DNA of 64,000 bases, taken from the NCBI GenBank assembly GCA_964106645.2, contig OZ067047.1; one strand, 5' to 3'. This DNA comes from Podarcis pityusensis. Taxonomy: Eukaryota. This document shows positions 5,238-56,195 of the stretch, one piece after another (positions within the stretch are counted from its first letter, which is position 1; every line of letters starts with the position of its first letter). A program made the translations under genes and the position numbers. The notes under the pieces were generated by a model. It saw only the letters and a list, made by a program, of their open reading frames with translations, made no database searches and was not told where the DNA came from.

Positions 5238-6681
5238 CCCTACATATTTTGTTTTCTGGGCGTTTCTCTGATGAATAATTTTGTAAAAATTTTTCATGCT
5301 GTTTGCTTTCTAAATATAGCTTAGCATCTTGTTTATATGAAAGCATGTCACAATGGTTGTGCTCACAAACATAGTGGTAAGCTATGGTCTGTTCTAATAA
5401 TAGTTTGCTCAAGAAACCACAAGTCACCTTGAAAACTAAGGGGGGGGGGCGGGAGTCACAACTTGTTTCTCCATGCTTGGTTTGTTTTCCAACTGCTTTT
5501 CCCTCAATGCAATTGAAGCTTGGCAAGTGCTTGTGGTGGTGGAATACAAATCATGGTTAAGCAAGACTGATGGATTTAGGTATGTCAGACTCTAGAAGAA
5601 AACAAGCCACCGTTTGTAAGTCAACCACCACTATAGCTTCACCTTGTGGTCTGCTCTGGAGAGTTTGGATATTCAAGCAAACCATGCTTTGGCTAAACAA
5701 GCCATGGCTTAGCATAATGTATGAACCAGGCTATTGCAGTTTTATGACTGTAGAATAGTCCTTCTTCAATGTTACACAAAGTTTTCCCAGGGAGTTGTAA
5801 ATAGAGTAATAAAGTCTTCCTTGGAGCACACTATCATTGTCTCTGTCTTACAAATCAAACAGGTTTGTGCATTTTTGCAATGCTTTGAAGACTAACAAAA
5901 TCTATTTCATAGACCACACAAACTGGTCAGCCAATAATTTTGCTGGACAGTCCCCTTACCTATTTATGGTGAGGAAAGAATAAGCCAAACTCTCATACCT
6001 TCCTACTATTACTGCTTATGAATACCCCTCTATGGTTGGCAGTTAGAAAACACACATCACGCAGAAGGGTGGTTTGACCTAGAGATTGCCACTTTTGACC
6101 TCTGCAACAATAAGACAGAAAAACCTCCAACTCTAATCAGTTCTGTACAACACAGTGTATCTAACCTACAATAAGACCAAGAAAGTGCATGTGTTAAGAA
6201 AGGAGGGCACTACTCGGCACAGTATGACTATAGAGTGGTACTGTTTTGGTTTGTGTTTAAAGAACAGTTATTACTTCATCCAGTCTAGTACATCTTCAGG
6301 CTGTGAAACAGTCTCTGTATTTCTCTTACCTGAGCATCCAAGTGAGCATCAGATAAGTAAAAAAGAATTTTTTTCAACATTGTTAAATGACCAGCACTTG
6401 TTACCATATTAAACAGGCTCACATGACAAGGTTTTGACAACCATCAATACATACAACATAAACTAATCACGATGAGGGCTGCTCCTAGTAAGCTAGGATC
6501 ACAGAAGCTTCAACAACCACACAATACTGTTCTAATCTCAAATACTGCAGTAATTTGCAGGGATGTGAGGAGATTAAGGAAAGGTCGAAACAGGATAAGG
6601 AATACAAGGAGTTTTGCACTATGAAGTTGGGGGGAGGGTTTACGAAAAATGAAGTAATTTGGAAACATTTGTTCCTGTAAC

Positions 6682-7890
6682 CTGAGGATAGTGTGTAGAT
6701 GGTCCTGAAGAAGCCAGTGCCGAGAAAGCCTGTTGAGATGAAGTTCCCTGTGGGAAGTGGAAGATGATCTGTGAATCCTGAAATGCCTTCTGAGTCATCT
6801 GGGCAGCAGGCAGAGGCAAGCCTGAACCATACGACGCAGATACCCCAGTGGGAGGAGGAGAAAGAAAGTCACCAGTGTCTGAGGAAGTCAACTGTGATGA
6901 ATCACTGGAGTATCCTGGGCTACCTTCTGGCCAGCTCTGTAAGACAGAACTGCCTCTAGGCACCATGAACTCGGAGCCTAAGTAGCTGCACTGCTCTTCC
7001 GTTACAGGCTGAAGACGACCAGGCTGTATGGTTGTCTGAGGGGACTCCTCCTGGTTAAAATCTGTGGAGCCTCGACGATTTCTATAAACGCGCTGTGAGA
7101 GGACAGCACCGTCTCCTGCAGTTGCACTGGGTGCTTGAACATGGAACTCAAAGACACAACTTGCTCGACCGTCCCCACTGTGAGTGAGTATGGCAGGTGC
7201 AGAATGTGGAACAAATACTGGGTGAAAATTCATTTGTGTGGCATCTGCACTCAGTGGTGCTGACATACTAGACAATGGTGATGGTGGATTCATTCCAGAA
7301 TCCAGTCTCAAGTTCTGAATCTGTCTTGCCAGAAATGGCTGCCCAGTTTGATATTCAAAAGTAGAACTCTGCGGGGGGCCGCCTTGCAAATTTCTCTGTT
7401 CAGGAGCCTGCTGTAAGTGTTGCTCAGTCCCCTGGGGATTCTGGGGCACTGTATCATAGTGTTCTGGCAACTGGGACTGGTAGTGCATGCCCACTAAATA
7501 CATTGCTTCTTGAGTCAACATGCTTGTAGCATCCTTTGAAGGCGCTTGTCCAGATCTGTAATCACTCAACCCTTGAGCCGAGTCAAAACCAGGGTTAGCC
7601 TGCATATGCTCCCCAGCTGTGCTGCTCATTGTCACCAGTCCCTCTGGTGTCCAAGTTGCTGGACTACCAACAGGGAGAACAAAACTCTGACCAGTCTTGA
7701 GCAAGGGCTGGAAGTGGCAGGTTTGGGCTTCAAGGATGGAAGTGCTCTTGCGTCGCTGAGAAATGGCCACCCGTGAAGGGCAGATGGGTGGTGGCGAGAA
7801 AGACACTGGCCGTTCATGAACGGTTGGAAAAAATACTTGGGAATCTGGGAACGTTGGGGTTCCCCCACACGGATGCACCATGGATTGAGG
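6682..7890 (-). CDS. WNK1: WNK1 HSN2 neural cassette exon (1209 nt, 403 codons): PQSMVHPCGGTPTFPDSQVFFPTVHERPVSFSPPP...THYPQ
   Basis: ORF 6640..7908; acceptor atacag|CCTCAA and weak donor CAG|gttaca; N-terminus matches the HSN2 peptide. Confidence 0.93.
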
Positions 7891-9278
7891 CTGTATTGAC
7901 ATGAACAAGACAAGTAATTCACACGTTATAGAAGCATATTAGCATGTTCAGCTCAATAGGCAGCTCTCTTTAGTAACCTTATAGAATGGCTACGCCTAGT
8001 TCATGGTCAACACGTAAAATGCTTTGAAGGGTTATACATATCCATTAAATACATCCTTGGCAGATATCAGTGTCTATATGAGTATTTGCTTTTGTTAGAA
8101 GCTGCTTTTCCACCCATCTCCTTCTGTCAATATAAAAAACTTTGGACAACTTTCCTTAATGAAAATGGTTATTTCTCAACACATCCTTTATTTCCTATCA
8201 AAATTAGTTGCCTTTCAAGGAAAAGATTCTGTTGTGAATCTGGGGGGGAAAACAAGAAATGTAACTTCTTCAGAAACTTACTGTCCTTTCAAATGTGTAC
8301 CATCAATTAAGTGTTGAACATTTTAGTGCATCACCAAGGAGATTTGTAATCTCCCAATTCATGCACAAAAGATTGTAGAAAATATCAATGGGATAAATTA
8401 TAGCACCCCTGTATAAAGCTTATATGCCACTTCACCTTTATATGCCACTAACAATTTCTCTCTCTCTCTCCCACTGCACCAAAGTTTTGATTTATATTCT
8501 GGAAAAGCAGGAGCAAACTCTTATATGACACAAGTAACAGTACAGAGTGAGGATTAGTCCTACACCCTCTGTGAATAGAAGGCAATGTGTTTTTCTGTTC
8601 TGTAGAAAGTGATTCTCTCTTCCTCTCCTGCTCTAATGACTTATCACTTCAATCAAAGCAAGAATAAATTAATAGGAAATCAATTATCCCCAAGTGGAAG
8701 CAGTGACCGTCACATTAGTTTTGGCATCAGTTCTGGAAGTAAGAACAAGGAAAGGAGAAATGTAGTATACAAGGAAGCAGCACAGGACAAAAATTAAGAA
8801 CCGAACAGAAGAACTAGACTTCTAGCAATTTGAGTCTTTGATTTATACTGCCTGCTCACCAGAACCTTTTCTCCATAATGGTCAGAGCTGGAAACTTTCC
8901 CCCCTGTTAAATGGCAGAAAGCATTCACAGATGCCCCATGGTGGTTTTCAATGGCACTGGCATGGTTCTAGCCAGCTACATATACATATAATTTGAAGAA
9001 ATATTAACTGTAGCCCCAAAATCAAAGTGTATAAATCAGATCAGAACTAATCCATATAATTTGCAGATTTCATTTAAACTGCATGCTGCACTTCAGCTTT
9101 TCCCTGAAACTTCAGGCACATTAACTCTTAGGTTTTGGAGGAGGAAGAAGAATCAACTTTCCAGAAGCACAGGATAACACAGTCCCCATTTTGTCTCTTA
9201 TCTAATTTGAAGAATGACGCCAGGATGTATTTAGTGGTGACTTATCTGCAATGTGCCAGGAGGCATACAGTGACATAC

Positions 9279-23039: not shown

Positions 23040-23395
23040 GCCCTACTACCAGACCAGGCAGCCCTGCAGCAAAAATTAAAAAATGCTGCCAGGCAGATCA
23101 GGGGTCTGCAGGGTAGATATGTCTTTTGTTACCGCTCTGCCCCGCCAAACACCTGATTCACCTGGCAGCAATTTATTTTATTTTTATTTGCTGCGTGGCA
23201 AATCAGGGGGGTCTGCAGGGTAGCACAGTACCCCACCAAACACCTGATTTGCCCAGCAACTCAGCAGCAAAAAAAGGCACATCTTTTGCTGCTGTGCTGC
23301 TGGGAGAATCAGGTATTTGCCAGGGGTAGTGCTGCAGCAAAAGACAAGTGTCTTTTGCTGCTGCTGTCCCCCCTGCAGACCAGCTGATTGCACCC
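23040..23395. repeat. Degenerate internally repetitive dispersed element
   Basis: Recurrent aatcagg..ggtctgcagggtag...gtcttttgctgctg units in both orientations; related copy at about 41390-41550. Confidence 0.55.
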
Positions 23396-24515
23396 AGACA
23401 GGTGGAGATGCTAGGTGCCAAGGGTGGGCCCAGTTGCAAAAGGCCCAGCTAATTTTGAATGCTGAATATAACTGAGAACATCAGCTACCTCTGCCAAAGC
23501 TGGAGAGCACCTTTGATACACTCTTAGCCCCTTGTTCTTCCCAAGCTACTGGGCAAGACAAAACATGACATTACTTTTCAACACTGACTCATCACATGCC
23601 CATTTTAACTGGTATTCAGATGAGAACATCCACAAAACAATCCAAGTCTTTCTACTGAAAAGACACCAGTCTGCTAGATACCATGTTGGTGCATAGCAGT
23701 GGAAAAGATAGAAGAGTGGCCGTGCCAGCAGGACTGCTAAGGGAGGGGAGGGATTGTAAGAAGATTGGAAACTTTTTCCAATTTTAGATATACAAGGAAC
23801 TCATGCAAGATCACATTCAGATCACATGTAGTTAATTGAATATGCATCTGTGTCACTGTGTATCCACATCAGGAAGCCACAACCCGTGGCTACTGCCCTC
23901 CCGTGAGATCACACACAACTATTTGTGCCCAATTTACATGCAGTTTCCTACATGGAAGTGCTAAGAAAGTTATGATAGCTGATAATGGTATTTAGGATTT
24001 CCCCCAAACAAGGGGATTAACAATAGAGTCTGAAAGGAATTTTACTCTAATTGCTTTAATCTTCTTTTAGACTTTGCCATTAATTATGTTGGCCCATGAA
24101 CTCTAGAGTCAAGCTGCAAGGTACTTTGAAAAATCTCCATTACTTTTTTACTAAGCTATTTCAGTACTGGTTTGAGCTAGATGTAGGCTGCTACAAACCG
24201 TTAAAGGAAATGTTAAAAGAACTCATGATCCTAATGGAAAACAAAGTTAACCCCTTCCTCCCAACCCTGAGGCAATACTATGCAAGGTAATTTAATTTAC
24301 TCCATGCATCTTATGAAATGCAAATTTCTGTTATGTTACCCAATCCATGCTTAACCACTTCATTCCTGACTCTAAAGCTTGCCCAGCTAAACTTCAATTT
24401 TAAATACCAATATCCAATCCAAATTATGATTTTTTTTCTTACCAGTATTACAGCTTGCTATGCCCTAGTAATGCACACAATACTCACCCCTACTGAGTGG
24501 TATCAACACATTTTA

Positions 24516-25028
24516 CCGTATTTTTCGCTCCATAAGGCGCACCTGACCATAAGGCGCACCTAGTTTTTAGAGGGGGAAATCAAGAAAAAAATATCCCCCC
24601 CCCGGCCCCAAAGAGCAAAGAAAGCGAGCGGGATCCATCCCGCTGGCTGTCTTGGCTTCTGCCATAGCCGCGCGCAGCCTCTCTCGGCCAGAGAAGTTGC
24701 ACGCGGCTAAAGAGGAAGCCAGGACAGCCAGCGGGATGGATCCCGCTGGCTGTCTTGGCTTCTTTAGCCGCGCCGGGAGAGGCTGCGCGCGGCTATGGCA
24801 ATTCCCCCACCTCCCACAAAAGCACCCTTTAAGGAGCGCACGGCTCCTGTGGGCTTTTCTATGAGGAGGGAGAAGGGACTGACTGGGGAAAAGCCCACAA
24901 GAGCCGCGCTGAGCTCTTGGGGGCTTTTCCTGCCTGCCTCCCCCCTGCATTTGCTCCATAAGACGCACACACATTTCCCCTTACTTTTTAGGAGGGAAAA
25001 AGTGCATCTTATGGAGCGAAAAATACGG
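24516..25028. mobile_element. Non-autonomous Tc1/mariner-superfamily element with the same termini as 12033-12760
   Basis: TA|CCGTATTTTTCGCTCCATAAG ... CTTATGGAGCGAAAAATACGG|TA; CpG-rich interior suggests a young copy. Confidence 0.85.
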
Positions 25029-26711
25029 TATTTCAGGATTTCTCAGAATACTTTCCATGCCTTAGAGATACTGAATTTTACCACCATAGTCCACATTTTG
25101 TGAACCAGCACTGCAGTACTGTCTTCATCATAACAGCTTTTATCCTGCACAACCAGTTTGACTCTCCTTTCCCCACCTTCATCCCCATCTTTGACTTTCC
25201 AGTGTGTGTCTGGGAAGCTTTGTTCTCCAGTTTATTCCTATCAAATGAATGGTCATATTATGATGGGGGAGTGTGTGGAGTTACTTCACAATGTGCATCT
25301 TCATAAATCCAATGTAGTTCTCACTAATTAACACTGCTGGTCATTGCGCTTCCTTAAACATATCCAGAGGGTGGGCTGATCTTGTTGCTCTGCTGGAGGC
25401 AGTATGTGAAAGGGGGAATTAGACATAAACATGAGAGGAGACAAACAGTGAAGGATGAAGTAGTGAGTGGGGTCAACTGGCAGTGTAATACACGGTGGAA
25501 GGTGGAAGGAAGATCAGTGATGACATGGAACAGTGCTTATGAAGGAGGCACTGAATTCCTCCGATTGCTGGCTGCCTCTGCCTCTACACCCCCCCATCTC
25601 CCCCCCCCCTCTCTCCATTTCAGTTCCATTCTGGGAATTGGGGTTCCCTTCAGGGACCACTGGGGCTGGAGCAGGATGCAGATCCTGTATTGCTCATGAC
25701 GAGACAAATGGTGCACTGTCTGTGCATGGCCATCTACCCAAATGCACACAGGCACTTGCATGGCCCCAGGGTGGGTGGGGGTGACAACCTTTCAAATGCC
25801 ATTTAGATCCTCCCACTTTCTAATGCTCTAATCCTGGCACACTGCTGCCTCAGAAAGGCAAAGGGCTGCAATGTGGATCTGGCCCTGGAGTGAATCTGAA
25901 ATTACTTTCCTGATGTGTTTGGGTTATTATATCCTAGCCTAGTAAATCCAAGTAATCAAACAAGTAATCATCAGCAGATCCCTGAGGATTCACAAATCAG
26001 TTTATGAATTGGTTATAGTAATTTTGTTCAGAGGGAGGTTACCTTCATTGCAGTGTAGAGACAGGCAAGTCTCAAATATAGTTCAATTTTAGGATCTCCT
26101 ACACATCTTTGACTCCACAGTCCATACCTATTTCAACACTTTACAGCAGATACTTTCATTAATGTGTTGCTTGGATGCATGAAATGCACTATGTTACCTT
26201 ATAAATCCCCACTAAAGAGACAGATTCACAGCTTATTTTGATTGCTAGAACTGAATGTAGGGGGTAGAAACTTTAAAAATGCAAATGAACTAGTCCTGTG
26301 ATGACTTGTCAGTTGACTTGCAGTTAAATGTGTGAACTTCCTCCGTAGAAAGTACAGTCATACGGAAGCTCCATCTATAATGTTTCATCTGTGATAGCTG
26401 TTTGCATTAAGTGGGGAAAATGCATGTGGGAACTGATCATTCTAAAAAACCAGATTAAATATATTCAGACCAGTTTCATTCCTAGACAATTAGTGGCATT
26501 ATATGGGCAAACATGTACAAAAAAATGGCCAACAGTCAAGCTAGACAAAACATTAAATTCATGATGACAGTCAAACTTTTTAAAAAGGTTTTTAAAGGCA
26601 CAGGGAGATCACAACTGCAGAGTATGGGGAGGAGAGATTTAATTATTTCCCACAAACATTGCAGTACTGATGAAGCAGGTATTGGCATTAATGGCATCTT
26701 ATGGGAGGGGG

Positions 26712-27122
26712 TGAGCTGGACCATAAAGAAGGCTGATCGCCGAAGAATTGATGCTTTTGAATTATGGTGCTGGAGGAGACTCTTGAGAGTCCCATGGACT
26801 GCAAGAAGATCAAACCTATCCATTCTTAAGGAAATCAGCCCTGAGTGCTCACTGGAAGGACAGATCGTGAAGCTGAGGCTCAAATACTTTGGCCACCTCA
26901 TGAGAAGAGAAGACTCCCTGGAAAAGACCCTGATGTTGGGAAAGATGGAGGGCACAAGGAGAAGGGAACGACAGAGGACGAGATGGTTGGATAGTGTTCT
27001 CGAAGCTACCAGCATGAGTTTGACTAAACTGCGGGAGGCAGTGGAAGACAGAAGTGCCTGGCGTACTCTCGTCCATGGGGTCACGAAGAATCGGACACGA
27101 CTAAACAACTAAACAACAGCAA
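26712..27122 (+). mobile_element. 5'-truncated BovB/RTE LINE with 11-bp TSD
   Basis: SWTIKKADRRRIDAFELWCWRRLLRVPWTARRSN...HGVTKNRTRL; (AAC)-type tail; ATGGGAGGGGG at 26701-26711 and 27123-27133. Confidence 0.92.
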
Positions 27123-31362: not shown

Positions 31363-32215
31363 CAGCTGGTCCTGGGTTGCCCCCCTGGTCAGCTTAGCCC
31401 TCCAGGGCCCAGAGAAAGTGTACCCAGCTGCCTTCCCCCATCTTCATGGACCTGGTGGAAACACTTGGGCTCAATCTCAGCTACATTACAATCTTGGATT
31501 TTACTAATGCTTTTTATAGCCACTGAATTCTCCCTGGGTGTTGTTTTTGGGAGGGGAGCTTCTTCCCACCACTTATTTTTTGCACCCCCACAAACCTCAA
31601 GCTTACCCCAGTCTGTTTATCCCTCATATGAAGGTGGTAGCTTCAGCTATATTTGTGCAAGCATGCTAAGACTTGAAACAGAAATAAGGATATTTCCACT
31701 GGAAACCAACGGAAAATAATATTTCCTTGAATGGTAGGGCAAAAGTATTTTAAACTTTTACTTACAGCTTGTATAAACAAGTATTTAGAATCCTAGTTAA
31801 GCAACACATGCCTATAATTCTTTCATTCTGTAACATATTTGTTCAGATCAAGAGCTAATGTTCAAGTTAATGTTTTGTAATGAAGAAAAAACTGACAGGG
31901 TCAAAAGATTTCCACCAATATCCAATTTTAGTTTGGTACAGTACCTGGTTACGCAACTTTTCCTGAATGAATGCCAATGAACAGTAGGATTAAAGAACTG
32001 ATTTCTACCTGAGCTTTAAGTGTGGGCTGTGGCTCTTCCTTTTTGTAGCATTCAACCTCTTGCATTTCATGTAGAGCTAGGAAAGAGAGCATCTACATTT
32101 TCCCAAGTGTGTGCTTTCTTTTCTTTTTCTCTCCTGCAAAGCTACCCATCCTCTATCACTGAAGGAAGACATCTTTTGTTAGCTGTGGTAGGAGCTCTAC
32201 AATTGTAGATGGTTA

Positions 32216-32386
<171 letters not shown>

Positions 32387-32453
32387 TTAAATTAAAAGAA
32401 CGATTCAGACTCTAAATGTCTCAAAGCGAGCAGAGGCTGCTGGCGTTACTCAC

Positions 32454-32478
32454 CGCAGAAGGGAGTAGATGGGTAGAC
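32454..32478 (-). other. WNK1: Candidate 25-nt microexon in intron 3 (phase 0-1, VYPSTPFC-G joining GTPEF)
   Basis: About 40 nt of polypyrimidine ending tctcacag|GTCTACCCATCTACTCCCTTCTGCG|gtgagt; 68 nt upstream of exon 4. Confidence 0.65.
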
Positions 32479-32779
32479 CTGTGAGAAAAGAAGAAGTGGA
32501 AGCAAAAAGAAGAGGGAGGAGACCCTCAGTCACTCTGTTTCATCAACGTATCCCATGGGTCTTCCATTGCAAGGCCTTTGCAAGAAGTGAGAAACCAACA
32601 GTTAAAGGTTTTTATGTTCACCATTTATATATATATTATAATGGAACAGAATCAGGGGGAACATGTGAAGATTTTAGTCATAATGGTATATGATTGAATC
32701 CCAGGTTGAAGATAAACGGAGAAAAATAAAGTAAGAGACTAGCTAGACTACAAACCAAATACTTGTTAGACACACTTAC

Positions 32780-32839
32780 CTTTCCTCCTTGTGAGAAAGG
32801 AGGTATGAGGCTTGTTTCAGCATCCCTGCCTGCCCTCTG
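32780..32839 (-). other. WNK1: Candidate 60-nt cassette exon in intron 3 (NAGNAG acceptor; phase-0 reading QRAGRDAETSLIPPFSQGGK)
   Basis: ttttttacag|CAG|AGG...GGAAAG|gtaagt; consensus donor. Confidence 0.65.
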
Positions 32840-33035
32840 CTGTAAAAAATTAGTACTGGAAAGAGTCCACAGCTAGTCTCTGACCCGTAACACTCCATTT
32901 ACTTCTGTTTAGTGTCACTTTAAACAAAGCCTTGCAATGAAAAACCCTGTGTTTATGAATAAAGGTTTCTTAAAAATTAATTTTTCAAAAATGTTCTGCA
33001 AAGGCCACTCACCAGAGCCCTTTTTACATACTTAC

Positions 33036-33096
33036 CATTTCACCTGCAGTACATTTTATAGGCCTACTGCAGATACAGGAAATAGTGAGGGACATC
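33036..33096 (-). other. WNK1: Candidate 61-nt cassette exon in intron 3 (an alternative donor at 33012 gives 84 nt)
   Basis: atttttgcctgtag|GATGTC...GAAATG|gtaagt, with a second strong donor CTG|gtgagt 23 nt downstream. Confidence 0.6.
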
Positions 33097-33286
33097 CTAC
33101 AGGCAAAAATACTCAGAAATATAGAGAGATTGAGTTATAGGCACAGAGGGCGAGATTCAATAAATCCTAATTTTAAAATCAATTTGTAGGAGGTGTATTA
33201 TCCCTGATGTATCAAACCAATGCACCCTTCCATTTCACAGAAATCTGCACTATATGAATCAGAGATATGTAAGAGCCAGAAATTAC

Positions 33287-33307
33287 CAATAAGCAGAGAA
33301 TTATTTC
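33287..33307 (-). other. WNK1: Candidate 21-nt microexon in intron 3 (phase 1-1, GNNSLLI)
   Basis: ctggtttgtttgcag|GAAATAATTCTCTGCTTATTG|gtaatt; open in the exon 3 frame; donor only moderate. Confidence 0.45.
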
Positions 33308-34201
33308 CTGCAAACAAACCAGATTGTATGCAAATTTACCAATCAATCACTTTTTACTTCCCTATCCATCTACCCATAATTCAGTGGTGTTCTAGCCTTA
33401 ACTGAAAGGGAGCATATTAATTCAGTTGTTCAAAAAAGTCAGAATATGGCAGTTTTCCAATTGAAAGTTGATCATAACATATGGAAAAGAGACTGCTATG
33501 TTAAGGAAGTTGGTCATTTCCCACTGAATATTCTCCCCTTTCCACTAACATTAATTGTTTCTAGACTGGCTGGAAAGCAGGAAATGTTTCATTGTCACAA
33601 AGGCCAAGATATTTGCAAATGTAAATTTGTATTGTTAAAATCAGGTATTACAACTTCTGAAAACAGAACTTCAGAAATAGCTGTAGATTGCATTCTAAAA
33701 ACACACACTAGCAGATGCAGACTAAAAAGGACTATCTTTTCCCTTGTTAGCTTGCATCCTTCACAAAACAAATAGCAGAACAGAGCTGTTAAAACCAATT
33801 ATCTGGTCATAGTTTCAGACCAGCTGACAAAGCTATTGTAGGGTACTTAAATGCAGCAGCCCAGAAATTTTAGGTATAAGGCAGAGGTTTGTATTTTTTT
33901 AAAAAAGAATTTTCATTAAAAACTCTGTGCTTCCCCTTAATCCCAGTTCAGAACAGTTATTTCAAAGGATGGAAATACTTTGGTTTTATCAAGTGTTCTG
34001 CTAAGTGAAAGAGCCTACACACCTTGAGAAGATTCTTTAGGAGAATACTAATATCAGGGACCCATATTTTATGAGACCTAAAACTCTAGAATTTTCAGGG
34101 ATGAAGCTTTTTTCATTTCCTTTTTTTGCTTTGTGAGAATTGGAAAATTCTATTAGGCAAATTTTCAAGTAAGAACTGCTAAAACAAAACCAGAAGCTTA
34201 C

Positions 34202-34422
34202 CTATCACACTCTTGGCAAAGGAAGCCCGCTTCAAGGTTGCCAGACCCAAGTCTCCTATCTTGACTGATCCTGTAGGGCCAGTAATAAAGATGTTGTCAC
34301 ACTTCAAGTCACGGTGGATAATGGGAGGAGTACGCGTGTGCAAGAACTGCAAACCCTTCAGTATTTGCCGGCACCAGCTTCGCAGTACTTTGATTTTCAT
34401 CACTTTAAACCTTTTTAAGTAC
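34202..34422 (-). CDS. WNK1: WNK1 exon 3 (221 nt): YLKRFKVMK...[15 protein letters not shown]...[19 protein letters not shown]
   Basis: Acceptor ctag|GTAC and donor ATAG|gtaagc. Contains the HRDLKCDN catalytic loop, the DLG motif and the activation-loop serine (S382 equivalent). Lies in ORF 34179..34580. Confidence 0.98.
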
Positions 34423-35454
34423 CTAGGGAAAGAGCCACAGGAATAAAAATAAGCTTCAAGCTTCATCTTGAAGTCCATGCTGTTGGGATGCCACAAGTGA
34501 ACTACAAACATCAAACAAACAGATCGTAACAAAAGCAGGCTTCGTATGAGCCAAACTCCACACCTCCAGAAAAAGAACATAGGGCAAAGAGAAGTACTGG
34601 GAGTACTGAAAACCAGTCTTCCTTTTCAGAGGTAATAGAAACTGCACAGCAGTGCTCCTTCACAAAAAGAATAACTACACCTGCAGCATTTATATAAATC
34701 AATAAAGTGAACTGATTGGCTCATGAGTTAGAATCCAGGGGCCACCAATCTTTCTGAATCTGTGGGCACATTTTAAATTTTGAGTGTGTGGTATAGGAGC
34801 AACCCACCTCTGGTGCTTTTCCTTAACTCCCTTCTCCAGAAAATACATGCATGTGCACATGCTCACATAAGCACAAACTCCCTCTCTTTCATATTCTTTG
34901 GGTTCTGGGTAAAAGTTGAGATTCAGTAGAATTAAAACAAATATTTTTTAGTGTGCATGATTTTATATGAGGTTCCCTTGCACCAGTAATGCATTTTTAG
35001 TAGTAGGTTGCACAGTAAAAATCACAGTGACAGTGCTTGCCAGCACCACAAAAACATGCCCAAAGCACAGATTCCCATGTATCTTCATGATTTTTACATA
35101 ACATGACAACAAAGTCACCATCAAATCACAGAACACATCTGTGACACAGGTGGACTATGATTTGACAATACTCTTGAGGTGAACCATGCACAAATTATGA
35201 GGTTCCATAAGGATTGACACCTCAGATTTACGTTGCTGCTCAATAGTAGCTCTGAAAGTCAATGAAGGCAGATATGATCTGTTATTTGATTTTGAGGGGC
35301 GCAAGGAGTAAATAATCTCTGAAACAATAAATGCGATTTCAAGAAGATCTGTTTTACTGGATCCATGTGTGCACACATGCTTTTTCTCTACTGACCTTGG
35401 CAACTCTTCTTTCTCTGCTGGCCATTCTTCATTCATCCCCTCAGTATCCTAGAA

Positions 35455-35691
35455 CAGGCATGCCCAACTCCCAAGTGACTGCGATCTACTCCCAGTATAA
35501 AAAAACTGGCAGCGATCTATCCATTGTCAGCTTTCTTTGGGAGGGAGTGGCAAGAGTTGTTGAGCTCTTTTTGAGGAGGCTTCATCAGAGTTGTTGGGCT
35601 TGCGGGGGGGGGGCGGGTTGTGATTCCACAATCGACCAGGGACAGCCCACAGTCAACCAGTAGGTAGCAATTGTCTGGTTGGACATGCCTG
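35455..35691. mobile_element. hAT-like MITE with 8-bp TSD
   Basis: TIRs caggcatgcccaac / gttggacatgcctg; TCCTAGAA on both flanks. Confidence 0.8.
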
Positions 35692-37889
35692 TCCTAGAAG
35701 ATCATTATTCCCCTTTCTTTCCTTTCCTCCTAATTACTCCACTTTCTAATCAGTTGCCTGAAGTCTTGAAAAGCACATAGGAAAACTCTTCCTTCGTCCT
35801 GTTTCATCTTTATATGTTTTTCAAAAAGAGGGCAAAATAAGCACATTCACTACCTCAAAGCAGTTTCTCTTTTTCATAGGAAACTAAAATAATTTTAAGT
35901 ATCCATTCAGTTTTCTGCACATGCTGTAATAATTTTTTTGTCTTTTTAAGCAATTAGCTTTACATCAATTCATTTTGCTTAAAACCTAGCTGTTACACTT
36001 CCTGCAAATGCTCCATTTTCAAGAGACTTCAGAAGTGATACCAGCTTAGGATAATATTTGAAAAGTCAGCATCCCTGGCAGGAAATGTTGGGGCCCAAAG
36101 CCTTTAAGAGAAGAGAATTGGCAACGGACAAGTACGTTTTAAGAGCCAAGAATGTAAGCAAAGACACTATAGCTGAGCCAAATTGCCTCTCTTAAGATGT
36201 ATCTTGTGCAATGGGCACAAAAACCTGACTGATATTATGTGAGCAGCAAAATACTCAAAGGGTATCTCAGCCAAGAAATCAAATCAGAACATGTACCCCA
36301 GCAGTTTCCTCTCCCAGTCTCCCATGAGCCCTTCATACTCATACTTTCCTTCTAATATCCTCCTCTTCTCAACTCTTATTCCAAGCTGAACTCCAATTTC
36401 CCTCTGAAACCATCTCTCAAATGCTTTTTACAGGGCAGTTTTCACACCAGGATTAATGTTTGAAATGTGATTTCAAAGTCCCTCCTTTTGAACTACAGAA
36501 ATTGTAGCAATGGGGATTAGTATCAATCATCCAGAACTGGCAGCTGTCCAAATTATTCTATCAAGACATGCTCTTACAATGAAGTGGATAAGCAGAGATC
36601 AGAACATGCACTGAATTGTTGTGGAATAATCACGATAAGCATCTATTGTAAGATCATATAATAATGGCATCCAAGCTAGTCACAGAATCCCAAACACCTG
36701 TCATGGGGGGTGACATGGGAAGCAACCTTTGAACGTTGAACGTTACATGGAAAGGAGGAAGCCTGTCAATATAGAGGAAAGGTTTATGGGGGGAAGGGGT
36801 ATTGCTAAAGGCTGAACTAAGAAATTAAATTATTTTCCTGGAAGCTAACTGGGGTATAATGAGGTTTGTTCACAGGACAATGGGCTTGTCAAGGCACACA
36901 AAAATAACTTTTCCCACCAGATTTTCGAGGAGGAGCAAAATGCTTCTGGAAGCACTGGCACCTCACTCACATTTAGATAAAGGGTAGTGGGGAGAGAATC
37001 GCAATACAGAATATGCCAACTAAAAATACGTTTCTAAAATTCTTAAAATTAGTGCAGATATTGTCATTGGACAGGATCAAGGTCTCAAGGAGAACATAAA
37101 AATCTTTTCATTTGTTAGCTTAATTACCATCAGTCAAGTAAAGGCAAGTTTACACTGTAACCAAGGCTTCCTGGCTGAGCTCCTTCATTTAATGTTTCAA
37201 TAGCTAAGTGGTTGCTACAGTGACATCATAGCTGTCATTCACTTTCCAACAAAAACTTCTTTTCATTCTGAGTTGACATTCTGCAGTTATGCTCCTTCCC
37301 CCATTTCACCCAGGGAAAGCAACAATGAACCAAAGCACTGTTCTGAATTTGAAAGCAGTGCATACCAGTACTGGCTAATTCTGTTAAAACAGATTGGCAG
37401 GTAAGGTAGTATCATATGTTGCAGCAAACGAAAATGAGCTTACAGGTCACTGAAATCTATCAGAGGAAGTGAAATAGCATCTGTAATTCAATTTATGTGG
37501 GTGACATGTGGCTTTTAATTCAAATGTTTTAGTCACTTCCAAGTGTCCTTGTAAATCTTTTAAATACTTGCTGTAACTAAATGCATTTCCATTTCTAGCC
37601 ACCTCTGAAATGCTGAGTATCATCTACTTTCCCATTTGTCCTGAACTTCTGTAACATAAATACTACCTTATCAAAACTTGCAAAAACAATAAACCATTTC
37701 CTAGGACTAACACAGCAACAACCTTCTAGGCTCATGAAGATCTAACATGCAGCCCACTCCCAGAATGAAAGCTCCGCAGCTGTCAGAGAGGTTGAGGGTC
37801 TCAGGGAAGGAGGTTTGCTCTGAGGTAGAGGGAAATAATACAATAGAAGGAACCCATTCCTTGGATGAGCTGGTATCCTCTTGTGCCAA

Positions 37890-54391: not shown

Positions 54392-56195
54392 TCCTTGCAT
54401 GTGACTGAGCAATCATAAATCAACCACCACCTTATATCACCTCAAACAAAAGGCTTTTCAGTGGTCAGTGTATATTCTGCTTCATTAAATTATTTTGTAT
54501 TTTTGAATCCCACTCTTCCTCCATGCTGAAGCATAGGTTGACTAAGAAAAAAGTCAATAAAACTAGGAGATTAGTTAAAATCACAAGTTTTCAATAAAAT
54601 ATAAATAGGCAGTGATGATTATCTAAAGGATCATGCCATCAAGTGTTGAGTAATCAAGTGATGAGATTAAAAATGACAGGCATGCATGTGTCAACTGGCT
54701 TTAAGAATGTTCTGTATTAAGTCTATACAGAGCAGTCTCAGATTTTGTTAGCTGGCCTTTGCTTGGTTCACAAGCAAACACCTACAAACTCATTACGACG
54801 AGACTAAATTAGCCTGTCTAATTGCTTTAGCTTTTTAAAATCAAAACTACTATTCCATTTCCTTTCATGTTTAATATCTTGTTCGGTTAAGACAAACATC
54901 AAAAACCTATTATGTATAGGTAAAGAGATGAGAAAAACAGTTTATGGAGGAGAATCCTATGTAATAAATGCATGCTTAGGAATCTAGGATCAATAAACCA
55001 TCTTTTTCACCTAAAACCTCTTCATTGGCATCTTTATTATTGATACAAAATACCTTTTACTTATGGTCAGCAATCTAAGCAATACACATTACTATATATC
55101 ATTTCATATATGTACCAATTGTAATAATTTTGAGAGATACACTTCAACATAACTTTGTTAATATATTTATTAACGTTTATCTGAGTGTTTATAGTTGTTT
55201 AATTTTAATTTTATGTAATTGTTGCATGTCATATGTTCTTATGTAAACAAAGATGTATCTTAATGCAACCACATTAAACAGCTTAAAGATGAAAATGAAT
55301 AAAAGAGAATTTTAAAGAAAACTTTTTTTAAAAGTTTCCATTTCTGAGGGCAACTGAGAAATTTTAAGATGAAAGTATGGAAAGAAAGCAGACTGGAAAT
55401 ATACCAAGACTGGAAAAACATACAGGCCACTGAGCAAGCCATGGCCAAATTGAAGCTAGATCCAGCCATATATCAAAATCTATATATCATGACCTTTATG
55501 AATCTACTGAATAGAAGCCCAGAGATAAGATTGTTTTTCTGCAGTCCAGTGATATGCAAATTTTATTAAATAAATGAGTAGAAAGTATTTCATAATAGCA
55601 ACTTTAAAATGAATTAATTATCTAAATTGCATAGAAGTTTTGATGATTACGCGGTACATAAATCCTGTTAAATTAATTAAAAATATTATGGTTGTTCCCT
55701 GCTTTGTAGAAACCTGAAAACGAACATTTACATGGCAAATACTTAATCTATTTCTACAGGTGCAATGAAGGTTGAACAAAGGGCTGGCCTCTCTAGTGAT
55801 TCATTTAAATGCTGTAATTTGAGTTGTTCAAAAGTTTGTCAGAAGTTTTCCTGAAGTACCATCTAGAAATATTGCTATAGTTTTTTCTGTTTATTTTCAA
55901 TCATTTGAGAAACCCTGAAACTTCTGGGTTAGAATTTAATATGTCAAAACTGTAATTATAACACACACAACTGATAATGGAAGTTTCATTTTCATATTTC
56001 TGAAAGAACAATCACCTACAGGATAGAGAGTTGCATACATTTTACTTTCATTTCAGACACTCACCACAGCAATTTTAGCCACTTCCCCCAGGGCAATTTT
56101 GTAACTGCAATAAGGGGAGGTGAGCAAGCTGAGCAAGTTTACTGCATGCTCTGCATTTTTTGTACTTATCTTCAAGTCTTGTATTGAGTACTGTA

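Follow-up and report, generated by a model that had tools for sequence, protein, structure and literature searches.

A nested RNA stem predicted around a candidate poison cassette in the WNK1 activation-loop intron of the lizard Podarcis pityusensis

Background

What might a long RNA duplex do in the intron that splits the activation loop of a kinase? The question is raised by a stretch of 64,000 nucleotides from Podarcis pityusensis (assembly GCA_964106645.2, contig OZ067047.1), called the window in the following, in which WNK1 lies on the minus strand. WNK1 is a chloride- and osmolarity-sensing kinase whose dose matters; it is tied to an inherited form of hypertension and to a sensory neuropathy (PMC13686953, PMC3365125). 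Ser382 is its autophosphorylated residue, and chloride binds at the activation loop (review PMC13686953). The alternative exons described for this gene are 4a, 8b, HSN2, 9, 11, 12, 26, 26a and 26b (PMC3365125). These share with the candidates discussed here that they are cassettes, with tissue-specific use, inside introns of the same gene. Yet none of the nine is located in the activation-loop intron, and the terms 'exon 3' and 'intron 3' are absent from that text (PMC3365125).

A sequence-only reading of the window had pointed to two distant arms within this intron, whose pairing would loop out a 60-nt unit, and had proposed that the resulting structure controls splicing. We followed up this proposal by RNA folding against shuffled and real controls, by searches for further copies and for homologs, and by an analysis of the splice sites and reading frames of the possible exons.

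Results and Discussion

The host intron has a length of 1.8 kb, is in phase 1 and splits the kinase activation loop. It separates two constitutive exons (Table 1), which we take to be exons 3 and 4 by human WNK1 numbering. All 73 residues of the upstream exon are identical to those of a WNK1 PDB chain, and it shows 100% identity with many annotated WNK1 proteins. The exon-exon junction is situated three residues past the activation-loop serine, and further WNK1 exons are present downstream of the second exon. A long open frame at 6640-7938, also on the minus strand, resembles the HSN2 exon.

The duplex within this intron is real. Its coordinates had been read correctly: 32947-32925 pairs with 32580-32557 over 23 bp, consisting of 21 Watson-Crick and two U-G pairs with one bulged G. 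About 345 nt separate the two outer arms, and the core has an energy of -35.9 kcal/mol on the minus (transcribed) strand vs. -26.1 on the plus strand. Folding against shuffled controls, the check that had been suggested along with the duplex, came out in its favour. The two flanking intron pieces reach -38.4 against a mean of -21.9 for dinucleotide shuffles (z -7.5, 0 of 200 as good), and the fold of 701 nt has a z of -4.98, with none of 20 shuffles as good. Two weaker extensions had also been listed. The first, AAGUGA/UCACUU, holds with a pair probability of 0.96, whereas AACAG/CUGUU forms in the two-strand duplex and is lost from the ensemble, in which 32905-32893 has a nearer partner. The strand preference of the fold is weak overall: the z is -5.1 on the minus vs. 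-4.4 on the plus strand for the whole region and -3.6 vs. -4.5 for the inner stem. The fold is therefore not clearly strand-specific.

According to the ensemble fold, the arms are predicted to be the outer helix of a larger nested stem, which holds candidate exon b in its end loop. The pairing in the earlier description was right, but this inner stem and a separate hairpin over candidate exon a had been left out of it. The 88-nt end loop contains candidate exon b (60 nt), with 12 nt of the acceptor before it and 16 nt on the donor side after it. Positions -45 to -20 of exon b have a mean unpaired probability of 0.25. The separate hairpin pairs microexon a along with both of its splice-site dinucleotides, AG of the acceptor and GU of the donor. 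In the fold model, none of the main helices is lost between 15 and 42 C. Rfam covariance models gave no match at E up to 1 in 32000-34500, and tandem repeats were not found. Within the AT-rich bulge on the 3' side, a 12-nt motif at 32643-32657 overlaps a branch-point-like sequence, and four residues are identical there in the protein P0121 from another organism (see below). This may be a distant branch point or chance, as block scores this high turn up in 86 of 200 shuffles.

Table 1. Features of the activation-loop intron of WNK1 and its surroundings (window coordinates)
Feature	Position	Strand	Remarks
Upstream constitutive WNK1 kinase exon, 221 nt	34202..34422	-	ends just past activation-loop serine
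Local hairpin, 8 + 10 bp (18 bp)	33034..33086	-	probability 0.91-0.99; z -3.55, 2/300 shuffles as good
Candidate microexon a, 8 nt	33036..33043	-	donor rank 10; acceptor poor, rank 1063; alternative acceptors 33096, 33066, 33063
Alternative strong donor, 23 nt downstream of the donor of a	33007..33015	-	rank 6
Outer stem, 5' arm	32924..32947	-	pair probability ~0.93
6-bp extension AAGUGA/UCACUU, 5' strand	32915..32920	-	pairs with 32590-32585; probability 0.96
Inner stem, 5' strand, helices of 4, 9, 4, 11, 5 and 6 bp	32852..32905	-	probabilities 0.8-0.99; z -3.6; covers upstream part of b acceptor region
Candidate exon b, 60 nt (57 nt via NAGNAG acceptor)	32780..32839	-	donor rank 1/3705, acceptor rank 409/4229
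Inner stem, 3' strand	32708..32763	-	ensemble fold; 32745-32762 identical in P0121
AT-rich one-sided bulge on 3' side, ~106 nt	32602..32707	-	diverged in second organism
6-bp extension, 3' strand	32585..32590	-	no forced change at positions fixed by P0121
Outer stem, 3' arm, bulged G at 32575/32576	32557..32581	-	overlaps cryptic acceptor AG (next base 32575)
Candidate exon c, 25 nt, long pyrimidine tract	32454..32478	-	acceptor rank 2/4229, donor rank 14; frameshifts alone
Downstream constitutive WNK1 kinase exon, 158 nt	32228..32385	-	
MITE, ~240 nt, terminal inverted repeats, 8-bp target-site duplication	~35461-35692	-	1533 genome candidates; positive control

Copy number and origin of the arms

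Shuffled controls overstate the surprise of such a duplex, because 27 stronger ones occur in 113.7 kb of real sequence, where it ranks 28th of the 158 at or below -27 kcal/mol. For 24 of these 27 there is another copy of an arm in the 126 kb of sequence compared or an inverted alignment of at least 58 nt; one is the MITE of Table 1 and two are unclassified. Duplexes of this strength are common in the P. pityusensis genome and mostly come from repeats. This abundance would fit a reading in which the arms are what remains of an ancient foldback or hAT-like element, or an inverted repeat that arose by chance in an intron of slow evolution, without effect on splicing. The same reading would account for the fold being nearly as significant on the other strand and for the CAGGG at the start of the 5' arm, which is similar to hAT termini. 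Furthermore, a scan with the arm motif yielded four isolated matches with one mismatch vs. none for a control pattern. However, about two to three of these are expected by chance according to our estimate, and the four sites share the motif alone, without a strong inverted partner. The duplex arms gave a single candidate in the genome (1.5 Gb), whereas the same tool found 1533 for a MITE located 2.7 kb away, which served as positive control and which we take to be hAT-like. Inspection of the duplex flanks by eye revealed no target-site duplication; the neighbouring control MITE has one of 8 bp. On these two grounds, the interpretation of the arms as termini of a MITE or DNA transposon was rejected. 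The conservation of the 3' strands in P0121, with a bulge that is not conserved and with changes that spare the pairs, and a cluster of splice donors (p 1e-4), both described below, also speak against a relic or chance repeat, which we regard as very unlikely.

Elsewhere in the window, strong inverted-repeat clusters with long inverted alignments are located at 24500-25600 and 23100-23400 and are probably transposon-derived. A 208-residue open frame on the plus strand (26486-27112) resembles, in our judgement, the C-terminal portion of a LINE reverse transcriptase of the RTE/BovB type.

Conservation of the stem

With a 74-residue antisense open reading frame as query one protein was found, P0121, a Logan ORF of another organism (E 2.9e-8, 54% identity), which has one near-identical cluster mate. 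From the acceptor of c through the outer 3' arm, P0121 aligns without gaps over 37 codons, 26 of them identical. A second block, 32745-32762 in the inner strand, is identical, and its score was reached by none of 200 shuffles. The bulge between these two matching blocks diverges. The blocks were aligned ungapped; this replaced a loose-gap alignment that was unreliable in the bulge.

In the outer 3' strand none of the six changes that P0121 forces breaks a pair, when the 5' strands are assumed to equal those of the window. Four of them affect unpaired positions, namely the bulged G and three sites in an internal loop; the other two, G-C to G-U and U-G to U-A, are consistent with pairing and one-sided, in a comparison of the 3' strands of one organism. 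No two-sided compensatory change was seen in this comparison. Of 81 possible amino-acid-changing substitutions in this strand, only 22 would be harmless. Furthermore, P0121 has 2 extra nt in the inner 3' strand, opposite a 2-nt bulge of the window, with which they can pair. In this comparison, the count of 18 of 18 uses window letters at the four outermost positions. A further change from U-G to U-A in the inner 9-bp helix (P0121 residues WRK at 32717) was not counted, its placement being ambiguous. All this comes from one organism, read through amino acids over the 3' strands and outside b, with changes that are clustered and not independent; neither the 5' arms nor b were seen in another species. 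The structure is single-copy and probably selected.

Other sources added little. An exact look-up recovered one of six open reading frames of the window in the collection; the relative P0124 keeps the region of the hairpin over a and is too close to be informative. No homologous element was detected in WNK2-, WNK3- and WNK4-like paralogues or in a fish-like WNK2/3 intron (best E 0.25). Three WNK paralogues have an intron at the same position, with lengths of ~4.6, 2.2 and 2.3 kb and without a similar element; the names of these paralogues are our assumption from their motifs. None of 80 metagenome loci matched.

Candidate exons and reading frame

Splice sites were ranked with an approximate matrix over the 3705 GT sites and 4229 acceptors of the window (Table 1). 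The region stands out by its donors. Four of the seven G/GTRAGT donors of the window (64 kb, minus strand) lie here within 583 nt (p ~1e-4, for a motif picked after the region had been seen), and four of the top 14 matrix donors belong to this cluster (p 0.003). The other three G/GTRAGT donors, at 56065, 24488 and 18653 on the minus strand, are all further than 25 nt from any tblastn coding block; they may mark the ends of exons that are not annotated, or occur by chance.

The best-supported candidate exon is c, which is outside the stem. The intron between c and the next constitutive exon (32453-32386) has only 68 nt, near the minimum intron length of vertebrates, and this shortness itself may limit the inclusion of c. 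That the 60-nt unit b is an exon, as had been proposed, is backed by its donor, the top-ranked one, but its acceptor is weak (rank 409 among 4229) and its peptide has no homolog in our searches. None of 22 candidates matched the b peptide at E up to 10, and a search of 1.84 billion representatives had no hit at E up to 0.001; both searches are weak for a target of 20 residues. An RBFOX motif is absent, and one QKI-type ACUAAY is found at the acceptor of b, to which we give no weight.

Inclusion of b, of c, of a alone, of a+b or of b+c each gives a premature stop upstream of later junctions. Although 60 nt is a multiple of three, b alone meets a stop in this phase-1 intron and would therefore be a poison cassette unless a and c are included as well; a premature stop before later junctions, as in poison exons, is found for candidate b. 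Among 55 combinations of exons and sites, 52 lead to a frameshift or stop. The three that stay open, a+c, a+b+c and a+b57+c, all require a plus c.

These open combinations suggest another use of the stem. It might bridge a to c, shortening the intron between them from 557 nt to ~166 nt plus stem, and so choose between a+c and a+b+c as an insert of 11 or 30-31 residues, three past the activation-loop serine. Both 8+25 and 60 nt are multiples of three and free of stops, exon a has its own hairpin, and c ends with Phe-Cys before Gly-Thr-Pro-Glu, rebuilding Phe-Cys-Gly-Thr-Pro-Glu. This resembles, we presume, the P+1 loop of AGC kinases. However, the scheme depends on an 8-nt exon with the poorest acceptor (rank 1063), the better acceptors of a turn it into a poison exon, and coincidences of frame are not rare among 55 combinations. 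Moreover, no protein with such an insert was seen among WNK sequences (0 of 120 and 0 of 62). In the set of 120, 64 have the canonical junction and 56 do not; none of these 56 matches a, b or c, and from their sequences they look like intron read-through or truncation. The 62 further cluster members comprise 39 canonical junctions, seven others and 16 without the searched motif. We therefore consider such a coding switch unlikely. Likewise improbable is its wider form, in which a three-exon cassette (8 + 60 + 25 nt) gated by an RNA fold would rewrite the WNK1 activation segment of an ectotherm and alter its chloride, osmotic or phospho-control.

Among the proteins searched, the WNK1 product P0145 (Logan) ends seven residues beyond the activation-loop junction and has a tail that differs from the usual intron read-through. 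It possibly reflects skipping of the next exon in another species.

A proposed structure-controlled poison cassette

Rather better than evenly supported, in our estimate, is a mechanism in which the nested stem of the activation-loop intron holds and represses candidate exon b as an unproductive cassette, similar to the BRD2 and BRD3 cases. The stem would form in the pre-mRNA. Its inner helices would hide the upstream part of the weak acceptor of b, while the outer helix would loop b out, so that the two kinase exons are joined directly by default. Opening of the stem by RNA-binding proteins, by elongation rate or by temperature would lead to inclusion of b and, in the absence of a and c, to nonsense-mediated decay. 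The latter would be the usual result, because 52 of the 55 combinations give a frameshift or stop far upstream of later junctions. The outcome would be a dial on the amount of full-length WNK1. The original proposal of a splicing-control structure is partly supported: its arms occur once in the genome, a second organism retains the 3' arm with changes confined to unpaired or wobble-tolerant positions, and b lies in the end loop together with the best of 3705 donors.

The structure might also be real and selected and nevertheless serve mainly something else: it might mask the cryptic acceptor at 32575 and thereby ensure the correct definition of c, act as an ADAR substrate or as a stem that induces editing, or promote back-splicing of b. 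The site at 32575, inside the outer 3' arm, has the second-best score among the acceptors of the intron, and c is the strongest exon, with a conserved acceptor side. A-to-I sites are overrepresented in long-range intronic duplexes (PMC8052449), and a circle is formed from the poison exon of BRD2 (PMC10789245). Against these roles, it is precisely the best donor of the window, with its 60-nt exon, that the stem encloses. In addition, the longest uninterrupted helix has ~19-21 bp, which is short for promiscuous editing. We rate a different main role as rather unlikely.

Comparison with known systems

The preferred reading, repression of a poison cassette, has close parallels. In BRD2 (exon 3b) and BRD3 (exon 5b) conserved complementary regions loop out poison exons; inclusion of the poison exon went up when the arms were blocked or mutated, and compensatory changes restored it (PMC10789245). 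The arrangement in WNK1 is alike in that complementary intronic arms lie on either side of a cassette with a premature stop, and in BRD2 and BRD3 the structure represses inclusion. It differs in that WNK1 is a kinase gene and the stem is predicted to be nested, with an inner helix that reaches the acceptor region. Furthermore, two additional candidate exons flank the WNK1 stem, with one combination that would put the message back in frame.

Pairs of conserved complementary regions (PCCR) were catalogued with thresholds of -15 kcal/mol or better, at least 10 nt and a distance within 10 kb; their median is -17.2, and exons looped out by stable pairs are included less (PMC8052449). With 23 bp, -35.9 kcal/mol and arms ~345 nt apart, the WNK1 duplex lies within these limits and far beyond the median. 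That catalogue is human and requires conservation in multiple species, whereas the 3' strands of the lizard WNK1 stem are kept in one other organism. WNK1 is absent from the searched part of the PCCR supplement (five files, a part of the 916,360 pairs), and a human entry is possible.

Another class comprises stem-loops that conceal a branch site ahead of a poison exon, for example in SF3B3 (PMC11162794). Similarly, the WNK1 inner stem pairs positions -45 to -20 upstream of b, and a hairpin covers the splice sites of a. Unlike in the local hairpin of SF3B3, the partner strand in WNK1 is located downstream of the exon. Among the rows listed in the supplement of PMC11162794, one belongs to WNK1 and has a different acceptor sequence; the supplement of PMC11632617 has no WNK entry. 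In the literature accessible to us nothing was found on this WNK1 intron or its structure; the full PCCR list and RIC-seq tables could hold a human counterpart.

Conclusion

This class of mechanism is already known; its proposed instance in the WNK1 activation-loop intron would be a new one. If the in-frame combination a+c is used, it would be a rare case of splicing within a kinase activation loop. If the preferred reading is true, a structure-controlled poison cassette would provide a new dial on full-length WNK1 and, should it also be present in mammals, a handle for splice-switching oligonucleotides.
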